The notes: a model not told the origin generated them from the sequence alone. A stretch of 13,947 bases of DNA from a virus (IMGVR_UViG_641522650_000013); one strand, 5' to 3'; positions 11,681-12,677 are shown, counted from the first letter of the stretch. Made by a program: numbers and translations.

Positions 11681-12115
11681 ATGACAGCACAAATTTCAGC
11701 ATACGGGCGGCTGGTGGCAGATCCCCAGACCCGCACCACAACGAACGGTAACAACATGGCTATGGCGCGGCTGGCGGTGTCTCTCCCCTGTAATGCGGCA
11801 GAGGCGGGAGAGTCAACCTTCTGGCTGGGCGTTATTGCTTTTGGGAAGCAGGCCGATGCGCTGGCAAAGCACCAGAAAGGCGACCTTGTGAGCGTGGCAG
11901 GCAATATGCAACTCAACCAGTGGACAGGGCAGGACGGCGGTACACAGCAGGGGTATCAGGTAGTAGCCGACAGTGTGATCAGCGCCAGAACGGTACGCCC
12001 CGGCGGGAAGGCAGGACAGCGGGGACAGGCAACGGACGCGCTGAGACGTGCGCAGCAGCCATCCCGTGATGAATACGACCAACGCCCACCATTCGACGAT
12101 GAAACGCCATTCTGA
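11681..12115 (+). CDS. ssb: Single-stranded DNA-binding protein (SSB)
   Basis: SD GAGGGG then ATG 11681; OB-fold motifs WLGVIAFGKQADALAKHQKGDLVSVAGNMQLNQWT, Gly/Gln-rich linker, acidic C-terminal tip DDETPF like the canonical SSB tail DDDIPF. Confidence 0.85.
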   Translation: MTAQISAYGRLVADPQTRTTTNGNNMAMARLAVSLPCNAAEAGESTFWLGVIAFGKQADALAKHQKGDLVSVAGNMQLNQWTGQDGGTQQGYQVVADSVISARTVRPGGKAGQRGQATDALRRAQQPSRDEYDQRPPFDDETPF

Positions 12116-12125
12116 GAGGGAAGAT

Positions 12126-12677
12126 ATGAGTACGCAACCCATCATTATTGAGTTCGGCAGCTATCGCTGGCCCAGACATCTTGCAATACATGAAGCAGGT
12201 CATGCGATAGCCGCATGGTTTTTCGGCATACAGGAGGTAGAAATTGCGTTATCGGGTAATAACCGAGTGGCAAAAACCTACCTTAGCGGCGATGTTGATG
12301 AATGTGGAGCTGTCGCGGTATGGCACGCCAACTATCCACGGAATGTGGCTGAGGTTAAGTCTTACACCCTCTCGAATGATGACACCAGGTTACGTCTGAT
12401 AGACCAGGTATGCCGGGCTATGGTTATCTCTCTGGCTGGTATCGTCGCGCAATCACGCTATACGGGGGATGATATTAACGCACTGATGGAAACGTCCGGG
12501 AAAGCAGACATGAAAAATGTTCGTGATTTATCAGAGGTATACCGGGTGGCTGGTGGGGAGGATGCTGATATACAGAGAATATCCCTTTCCCGTGCTGAGG
12601 CGCTGATTGCCCTGAAATGGTGGGATGTAGACTGGCCCCCTGAATCTCCAGACAACCAGTATCACTTAAATAAGTGA
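12126..12677 (+). CDS. Standalone FtsH-like (M41-type) zinc metallopeptidase domain protein, 3' end truncated and replaced by IS2 sequence
   Basis: SD GAGGGAAG then ATG 12126; [16 protein letters not shown] matches the FtsH zinc-binding HEAGHA motif, and the downstream ...ISLAGIVAQ...[13 protein letters not shown] region parallels the FtsH protease domain; no AAA+ ATPase domain upstream. IS2 begins at 12628, so the last 16 codons and the stop are IS2-derived. Confidence 0.6.

Follow-up and report, generated by a model that had tools for sequence, protein, structure and literature searches.

What does a peptidase domain do when it is parted from the machine that normally feeds it? FtsH-type peptidase domains are known almost exclusively as the chamber in which AAA+ machines degrade their substrates, and a conserved free-standing member of the M41 family raises the question of how such a site finds and cuts its substrates without an unfoldase. 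The question is posed here by a stretch of viral DNA of 13,947 nucleotides (IMGVR_UViG_641522650_000013), the whole of which is called the window below. In it, a first-pass annotation made from the sequence alone had picked out, next to the single-stranded DNA-binding protein gene ssb, an open reading frame (ORF) at 12126 with the FtsH-type zinc motif HEAGHA, and had proposed that it encodes a free-standing M41-like peptidase truncated by the insertion sequence (IS) IS2. The ORF and its motif are where the annotation placed them, and we consider it very probable that the gene is an IS2-truncated copy of a soluble, free-standing zinc metallopeptidase of the M41 fold, with neither an AAA+ unfoldase nor a membrane anchor. 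What is new is the family to which this copy belongs, which is, as judged from sequence, an M41 peptidase domain without its AAA+ machine, resident in phage satellites. The features of the truncated gene are as follows.

12126-12629, plus strand: native part of the peptidase gene (residues 1-168 of 213), 99.9% identical to the IS-free locus L001:14446-14948.
12189-12203, plus strand: HEAGH codons (H22-E23-A24-G25-H26), the HExxH zinc/catalytic motif, read from the sequence and aligned to HEAGH of FtsH.
12507-12509, plus strand: codon of D128, the predicted third zinc ligand, aligned to the Asp of FtsH 'GASND'.
12630-12677, plus strand: read-through tail encoded by IS2, 15 residues and a stop codon (12675-12677), non-native.
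12628-13947, plus strand: IS2 (IS3 family), from its left end to near its right end, with the orfA and orfB ORFs and 99% identity to IS2 copies; the window ends inside it.

The ORF (12126-12677) starts 10 nt past the ssb stop codon and is preceded by a Shine-Dalgarno-like site, GAGGGA; the gene is apparently co-transcribed with ssb. Truncation by IS2 from 12628 is borne out by the comparison with other genomes. Similarity to IS-free loci ends at 12628. From about that position the window matches, at 99% identity and up to its end, IS2 copies annotated in thousands of E. coli records. IS2 supplies the last bases of the V168 codon (12627-12629), and 168 native residues are followed by the 15 that IS2 encodes. 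The exact junction seen in the window occurs in none of 5,426 complete E. coli genomes; a source akin to Shigella would be no more than a guess. Residues 169-213, the 45 at the C-terminus, have been lost from this copy; they make up three C-terminal helices in the AlphaFold model, and IS2 has cut inside KWWDxIALAKILENRNHMP, which is invariant and the most conserved block of the family. Because these helices and that block are missing, the window copy is taken to be non-functional, a pseudogene that is almost certainly inactive. For the window itself the message is therefore a modest one, that of a pseudogene in an IS-riddled island.

The assignment to the M41 fold could not be read directly from domain databases. 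Compared on its own with Pfam, the protein gives sub-threshold matches that cover the HEAGH helix only (M50B, E about 0.008-0.01; M41, E about 0.11-0.15), and it has no match in NCBIfam, PHROGs or PADLOC, or in the PDB by phmmer. Since the direct matches are weak and limited to that helix, the annotation's view that the downstream sequence is protease-domain-like needed profile and structure work to sustain it. A profile built from the close family alone found no match in the PDB; a wider one succeeded, drawn from 49 of the relatives recovered by profile search, at 18-47% identity, which also served as the conservation alignment. It matches the FtsH chains of the PDB with E 6e-11 to 1e-9. In hhalign, the family profile aligns with residues 407-599 of E. 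coli FtsH (probability 95.4%, E 1.8e-8), in a register that sets HEAGH on HEAGH, D128 on the Asp of 'GASND', and G105 and A108 on 'GGRLAEE'. Pfam Peptidase_M41 (PF01434) is matched directly by 19 of the 49 relatives, with a best E of 4.6e-12. The AlphaFold model of the intact protein has a pLDDT of 77.6 and a pTM of 0.81, and structure comparison places the protein in the M41 fold at 9-20% identity to FtsH structures.

Crystal structures of FtsH show that the third zinc ligand in M41 peptidases is an Asp in the helix that follows the 'GGRxAE' helix. The only invariant columns among the 49 relatives are H22, E23, H26, G105, A108 and D128, and the predicted zinc site is complete, comprising HExxH and the downstream Asp, D128. 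The annotation's further statement that the protein contains no AAA+ module and no membrane anchor also stands. There is no AAA+ Pfam match in the protein, the whole of which aligns to the peptidase domain alone (FtsH 407-599) and so leaves no place for such a module, and no segment resembles a transmembrane helix, the maximum Kyte-Doolittle value over windows of 19 residues being 1.49. Nor is a neighbouring gene available to supply the ATPase, as none with an AAA+ domain is annotated in the intact islands examined.

The annotation had itself named two ways in which it might be wrong, namely that HEAGH is a fortuitous match within a different fold or that the homologues are fragments or pseudogenes of ordinary ftsH. 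The sub-threshold Pfam matches, confined to the HEAGH helix, and the failure of phmmer against the PDB are what such an artefact would predict. Chance is ruled out as the origin of the motif by the profile and structural matches over the whole domain, by the hhalign register and by the invariance of the zinc-site residues in the 49 relatives. A decayed piece of full-length ftsH is ruled out by the conserved stand-alone form of about 213 residues in many genera, by its low identity to FtsH and by purifying selection. Taken together, we regard an artefact of either kind as having a negligible chance of being correct. Two other candidates were also rejected. The protein is not a peptidase of the ImmA/M78 type, as it has no PF06114 match and the M78 fold was not found in it, and it is unrelated to the Rpp protein, which is a dimer that binds TerS and is no peptidase.

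The annotation had suggested that IS-free homologues would reveal the whole gene and its neighbours, and they do so. An IS-free ssb followed by the peptidase gene is present in 26 of the 5,426 complete E. coli genomes. In one of these, NZ_CP047010 (L001; DNA 99.9% identical), the gene lies at 14446-15087, has 642 bp and encodes 213 amino acids, its product being annotated as WP_095784789.1. Among 5.8 billion clusters there are only 23 relatives, all at least 62% identical and nearly all from Enterobacterales; those that are full-length have 211-227 residues, and the others are partial or fragment entries and are shorter. A profile search of 1.84 billion representatives recovered 61 proteins (clusters) at E <= 1e-3, some three in four of them free-standing, with 175-280 residues, and most others short fragments of 56-161. 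The stand-alone form that the annotation proposed is thus conserved, intact homologues of this kind having 186-253 residues. Profile search found a close relative in only two of 185,579 species-representative genomes, and tblastn found no relative in 50,697 phage genomes or 72,556 plasmids. Between diverged copies the ratio of non-synonymous to synonymous substitution rates (dN/dS) is 0.12-0.22, indicating purifying selection. The family is rare, conserved and uncharacterised, and is found almost only in phage satellites.

The window is an example of such a setting. ORF calling, Pfam and Rfam show it to be a single mobile element with co-oriented genes, and this element is a phage satellite of the Gram-negative phage-inducible chromosomal island (PICI) type, with a P4-type primase and AlpA, integrated at yicC. 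It has the features by which a PICI is recognised: integrase, AlpA, primase(-helicase) and origin lie in one orientation within about 10-15 kb, and there are no structural or lysis genes. Its other features are these.

1-1320: integrase, with the int-alpA RNA after it.
3154-3357: AlpA-type regulator (Pfam AlpA, E 2.2e-8).
5006-5231 (RNAs): Bro/AntA/Icd zone with c4-a1b1, isrK and C4 RNAs (Rfam).
1329-1395, 5006-5058, 5019-5095 and 5144-5231: Rfam matches at gathering score, respectively int-alpA, c4-a1b1, isrK and C4 antisense RNA.
8514-9857: P4-type primase-helicase, part with Zn-ribbon (Zn_Ribbon_Prim) and Toprim (Pfam).
9951-11306: P4-type primase-helicase, DUF927 part (Pfam).
11330-11595: iteron field, a putative satellite replication origin, between the primase-helicase ORFs and ssb.
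11681-12115, plus strand: ssb (144 aa, C-terminal tail ...DDETPF; Pfam SSB E 5.6e-17; TIGR00621 above cut-off).

The C4-type RNAs in the Bro/Icd zone are a P4-type RNA immunity module. At the putative origin, the iteron GAGACAACA is present in at least 12 copies and in both orientations, and the field is bracketed by 31-nt inverted-repeat arms (11330-11360 and 11565-11595) that are 97% complementary. With ssb at 11681-12115, the peptidase gene lies beside ssb and downstream of the origin, as the annotation had it. The SSB protein itself is 100% identical in L001, L002, L007 and L024. An intact sibling island has about 12.3 kb and is flanked by yicC and dinD. Gram-negative PICIs have been described as consisting of an Integration zone, a Bro zone, a Replication zone (Primase, SSB) and a dynamic Late zone, with yicC among their known integration sites (10.1101/2022.07.18.500453), and the layout of the island in the window agrees with this four-zone architecture.

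Nearly every locus of the family with readable context is a phage-satellite-like island. In the close relatives, which come from E. coli, Buttiauxella, Atlantibacter, Enterobacter, Dickeya, Pectobacterium and others, the islands are ordered int, AlpA, AntA/Icd and primase, and the peptidase gene follows primase, origin and ssb. This position is kept at 24-33% identity, as in a metagenomic contig with the order SSB-PerC-peptidase, in L030, where the peptidase follows the primase, and in L036, where the order is a primase of a different type (D5/DUF5906), SSB, a ProQ-like gene and the peptidase. In L011-L018 (22-27% identity) the peptidase lies between a P4-type primase and a DUF2280/major-capsid module, in elements that bear capsid genes. 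One exception is L032/L033, where the relative P0043 (23% identical) has an integrase gene for a neighbour but is otherwise surrounded by housekeeping genes; AlpA, primase and SSB are all missing from the vicinity. The slot after ssb is itself variable, as sibling yicC islands with the same backbone carry a gene for a PerC-family regulator instead (L023:9447-9728 and L024:9448-9729), replacing both the peptidase and the secreted-protein gene that accompanies it; the genes farther downstream, namely a 61-aa ORF, PRiA4_ORF3 and a 119-aa ORF on the minus strand, are shared. PerC-like genes are known accessory genes of Gram-negative PICIs (PMC11773190).

Some members of the family lie in less usual settings. 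Distant relatives (E ~3e-4) exemplified by P0066 at L034:692-1939, and including P0067 and P0072, have 402-478 residues with the peptidase domain at the C-terminus and a hydrophobic, Gly-rich middle region; Pfam finds nothing in their N-terminal extensions. An HK97-type major capsid gene follows shortly after the fusion gene of L034, a position at which head-maturation proteases are often encoded. The close homologues in L006 and L020 (73% and 93% identical) have surroundings typical of enterobacterial satellites, yet their records name 'Pseudomonas graminis' and 'Chryseobacterium sp.', which could reflect contamination, mislabelling or recent transfer.

The annotation had called the gene an orphan. 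This is correct as far as an AAA+ partner is concerned, but in intact loci a gene for an exported protein recurs directly downstream. In three lineages, namely that of E. coli (8 loci), L027 and Salmonella, a translationally coupled gene for a protein of about 112-116 residues begins before the peptidase gene has ended, the two overlapping by 4-10 nt; the peptidase itself is 49% identical in L027, and the Salmonella version, with 186 residues, is 32% identical. The partner, of about 115 residues, has a hydrophobic N-terminus and conserved cysteines, is 34-57% identical among the three lineages and belongs to a narrow, unnamed family. The downstream gene is a different one in Dickeya, Pectobacterium, L026 and L030, where it encodes a protein of 356-374 residues with a lipobox-like N-terminus, 36-60% identical between these loci. 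The exported status of these partners was judged by eye from hydrophobic N-termini, lipobox-like motifs and conserved Cys pairs, and Pfam finds nothing for either the lipoprotein or the secreted protein. IS2 has deleted, or moved away, whatever once lay behind the peptidase gene of the window.

Two further observations concern these partners. In the Salmonella yicC island (L037:5444-6345), the 186-aa peptidase keeps the zinc-site residues and has an ATGA overlap with the homologue of the secreted protein; the pair lies near the integrase, not after the primase, and is preceded by a gene for a 183-aa protein, as in L011-L018. Homologues of the lipoprotein of about 356 residues (62-66% identical) also occur in L011-L017, for example at L013:70-1140 and L016:1217-2287, about 6-7 kb from the peptidase and next to a tyrosine-recombinase-like gene, a case of co-occurrence without adjacency.

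The pairing of the peptidase with an exported protein may be functional or may be inherited synteny. The two genes might be regarded as an undescribed satellite module, in which an ATP-independent FtsH-type protease and an envelope partner, either the protein of about 115 residues, which would be periplasmic, or the lipoprotein of about 360, would together control helper or superinfecting phages, with envelope exclusion, the timing of lysis, or the destruction of unfolded secretory or phage proteins as possible modes of action; we think this a doubtful proposition, which if true would add a new class to the conflict systems that satellites encode.

How does the family compare with proteins that have been described? 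FtsH (M41, PF01434) is the source of the aligned peptidase domain, but it carries its AAA+ ATPase and N-terminal transmembrane helices in one chain and has a periplasmic domain as well, whereas the protein considered here has 213 residues in total and none of these parts. FtsH is, moreover, a housekeeping gene, in contrast to a gene on a phage satellite whose product is distant from it in sequence and has, in the close family, Gln for the Glu of 'AEE'. The best match in a library of viral structures is A0A6J5RJ76, a 214-aa protein of an uncultured phage named 'Peptidase M41 domain-containing protein', which is of the same size and shares the fold end to end (TM 0.57 normalised to either protein) at 11% identity. 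One member of the family, from Dickeya, has the same name in UniProt. The only other structure above noise is PDB 5iqj, a Vibrio cholerae protein of unknown function that, with 131 residues, is much shorter and that was not recovered by the sequence profiles of the family. The best functional analogy is with ImmA/IrrE (M78) and Lit (U49), small, soluble, ATP-independent HExxH peptidases of prophage-like elements, each of which has one specific target; they differ from our protein in fold and family, have no Pfam or PADLOC match to it and are not among the structural hits. Finally, accessory genes of the PerC and Rpp type occupy the region downstream of primase and origin in PICIs (PMC11773190; 10.1101/2022.07.18.500453), the same region as the peptidase gene. 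PerC is a small regulator and Rpp a TerS-binding dimer of 144-153 residues (PMC6739421); both are unrelated to our protein and neither is a peptidase. Searches of the literature library found no account of a free-standing M41/FtsH-like protease, be it in PICIs or satellites or among defence systems.

As to function, we tentatively propose that the intact protein is an ATP-independent protease in the interplay of satellite, helper and host, serving interference with or exploitation of the helper and perhaps acting with the exported partner; we would put this somewhat short of an even chance. When the satellite operon is switched on, the intact peptidase would be made and would act as an ATP-independent endopeptidase. 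As there is no unfoldase, only those parts of a specific target that are exposed or unfolded could be cut. This target might be a protein of the helper phage, of the host or of the satellite, cleaved in the course of satellite-helper-host conflict, and the exported protein encoded directly downstream could cooperate in this. A role of this sort is favoured by the long tie of the family to one satellite group at a fixed position, together with its absence from plasmids, phages and defence models. If the identity of the protein and this mechanism are taken together as a single explanation, a compromise figure would put it evenly balanced between right and wrong. A family that keeps all its zinc ligands and travels with satellites points to an unstudied player in the conflict between satellite, helper and host, and it is small and tractable, with intact alleles in sequenced E. 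coli strains.

A number of points weigh against this account, beginning with the assignment itself. The protein misses the gathering score of PF01434 (12.3-12.7 against 29.9 bits). The Glu of the FtsH 'AEE' is replaced in the close family by an invariant Gln (Q109), Glu being present in 33 of the 49 wider relatives, and one homologue has QEAGH; catalysis might accordingly be reduced or absent. The gene is dispensable for the satellite, as is evident from the siblings with PerC and from its presence in so few E. coli genomes. Its conserved synteny may reflect common satellite descent rather than functional coupling with its neighbours, and the mechanism is an inference from fold and context, made for the whole family.

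Other roles have to be weighed against the same evidence. The annotation had suggested, with due caution, that the gene might be defence or anti-defence cargo, and an effector of this kind might be activated by a superinfecting phage and cleave an essential host or phage protein, much as EF-Tu is cut by Lit, a peptidase that the e14 element encodes. The variation of the slot after ssb between sibling islands resembles that of accessory or cargo regions in satellites, and the gene is as rare and patchy as this would predict (26 of 5,426 E. coli genomes; two of 185,579 species representatives). Direct support is lacking, however: no PADLOC-DB 2.0 model matches the peptidase or five neighbours at E <= 1, there is no sensor domain, and the distribution, with no occurrence in the plasmids and phage genomes searched, is much more restricted than that of defence genes generally. 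The confinement to one satellite lineage group in nearly every locus with readable context, at a position that stays constant down to 24% identity, resembles a life-cycle module more than a shuffled defence gene, and we consider anti-phage defence unlikely. The same small, soluble HExxH peptidase, on a mobile element and apparently co-transcribed with ssb, could alternatively be a regulatory protease in the manner of ImmA/IrrE or CapP, whose substrate would be a satellite or helper repressor or other regulator, cut upon a signal; as ssb is a constant neighbour, this signal might be single-stranded DNA (ssDNA) or SSB. Evidence for this includes the HTH, PerC or ProQ-like gene that is immediately adjacent in several loci, and the existence of immune peptidases stimulated by ssDNA, of which CapP is an example (PMC13228613). 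We judge a regulatory role of this type to be distinctly unlikely.

The replacement of Glu by Gln invites a further thought, that the protein is a non-catalytic mimic of FtsH which would act by binding: it might assemble into a ring as FtsH protease domains do, or dock on host FtsH or its substrates, and so alter the turnover of clients such as lambda CII/CIII. That H, E, H and D never vary among the 49 relatives (18-47% identity) would be difficult to account for if the protein neither cut nor bound metal, and an identity to FtsH of only 9-20% makes co-assembly with the host enzyme improbable; a mimic of this kind therefore seems very unlikely. The proposal of an ATP-independent protease in satellite-helper-host interplay is accordingly the one that we retain, on a tentative footing, for the intact members of the family.

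The island in which the truncated copy lies has itself decayed. An in-frame stop at 9855-9857 (...DIGEREG* RTLKAGG...) splits the primase into a part with Zn-ribbon and Toprim and a part with DUF927. In relatives the primase-helicase is one undivided protein of 814-926 residues, so that the replication gene of the island looks inactivated. This stop and the three IS elements within 14 kb (IS1, an IS3-family element and IS2) mark the island as decayed. The two elements other than IS2 lie at about 1716-2480 and about 5470-6720; one is of IS1 type, with insA/insB-like ORFs on the minus strand, and the other belongs to the IS3 family, with an OrfA that we take to resemble that of IS911.

The island is also a mosaic. 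An ORF of about 100 residues that precedes ssb in L001 and L002 is missing from the window, and the 2.1 kb at 9596-11680, comprising the helicase half of the primase and the origin, have no detectable DNA similarity to L001 or L002. The boundary falls exactly at the ssb start codon, from which point (11681-12628) the window is 99.9% identical to L001.
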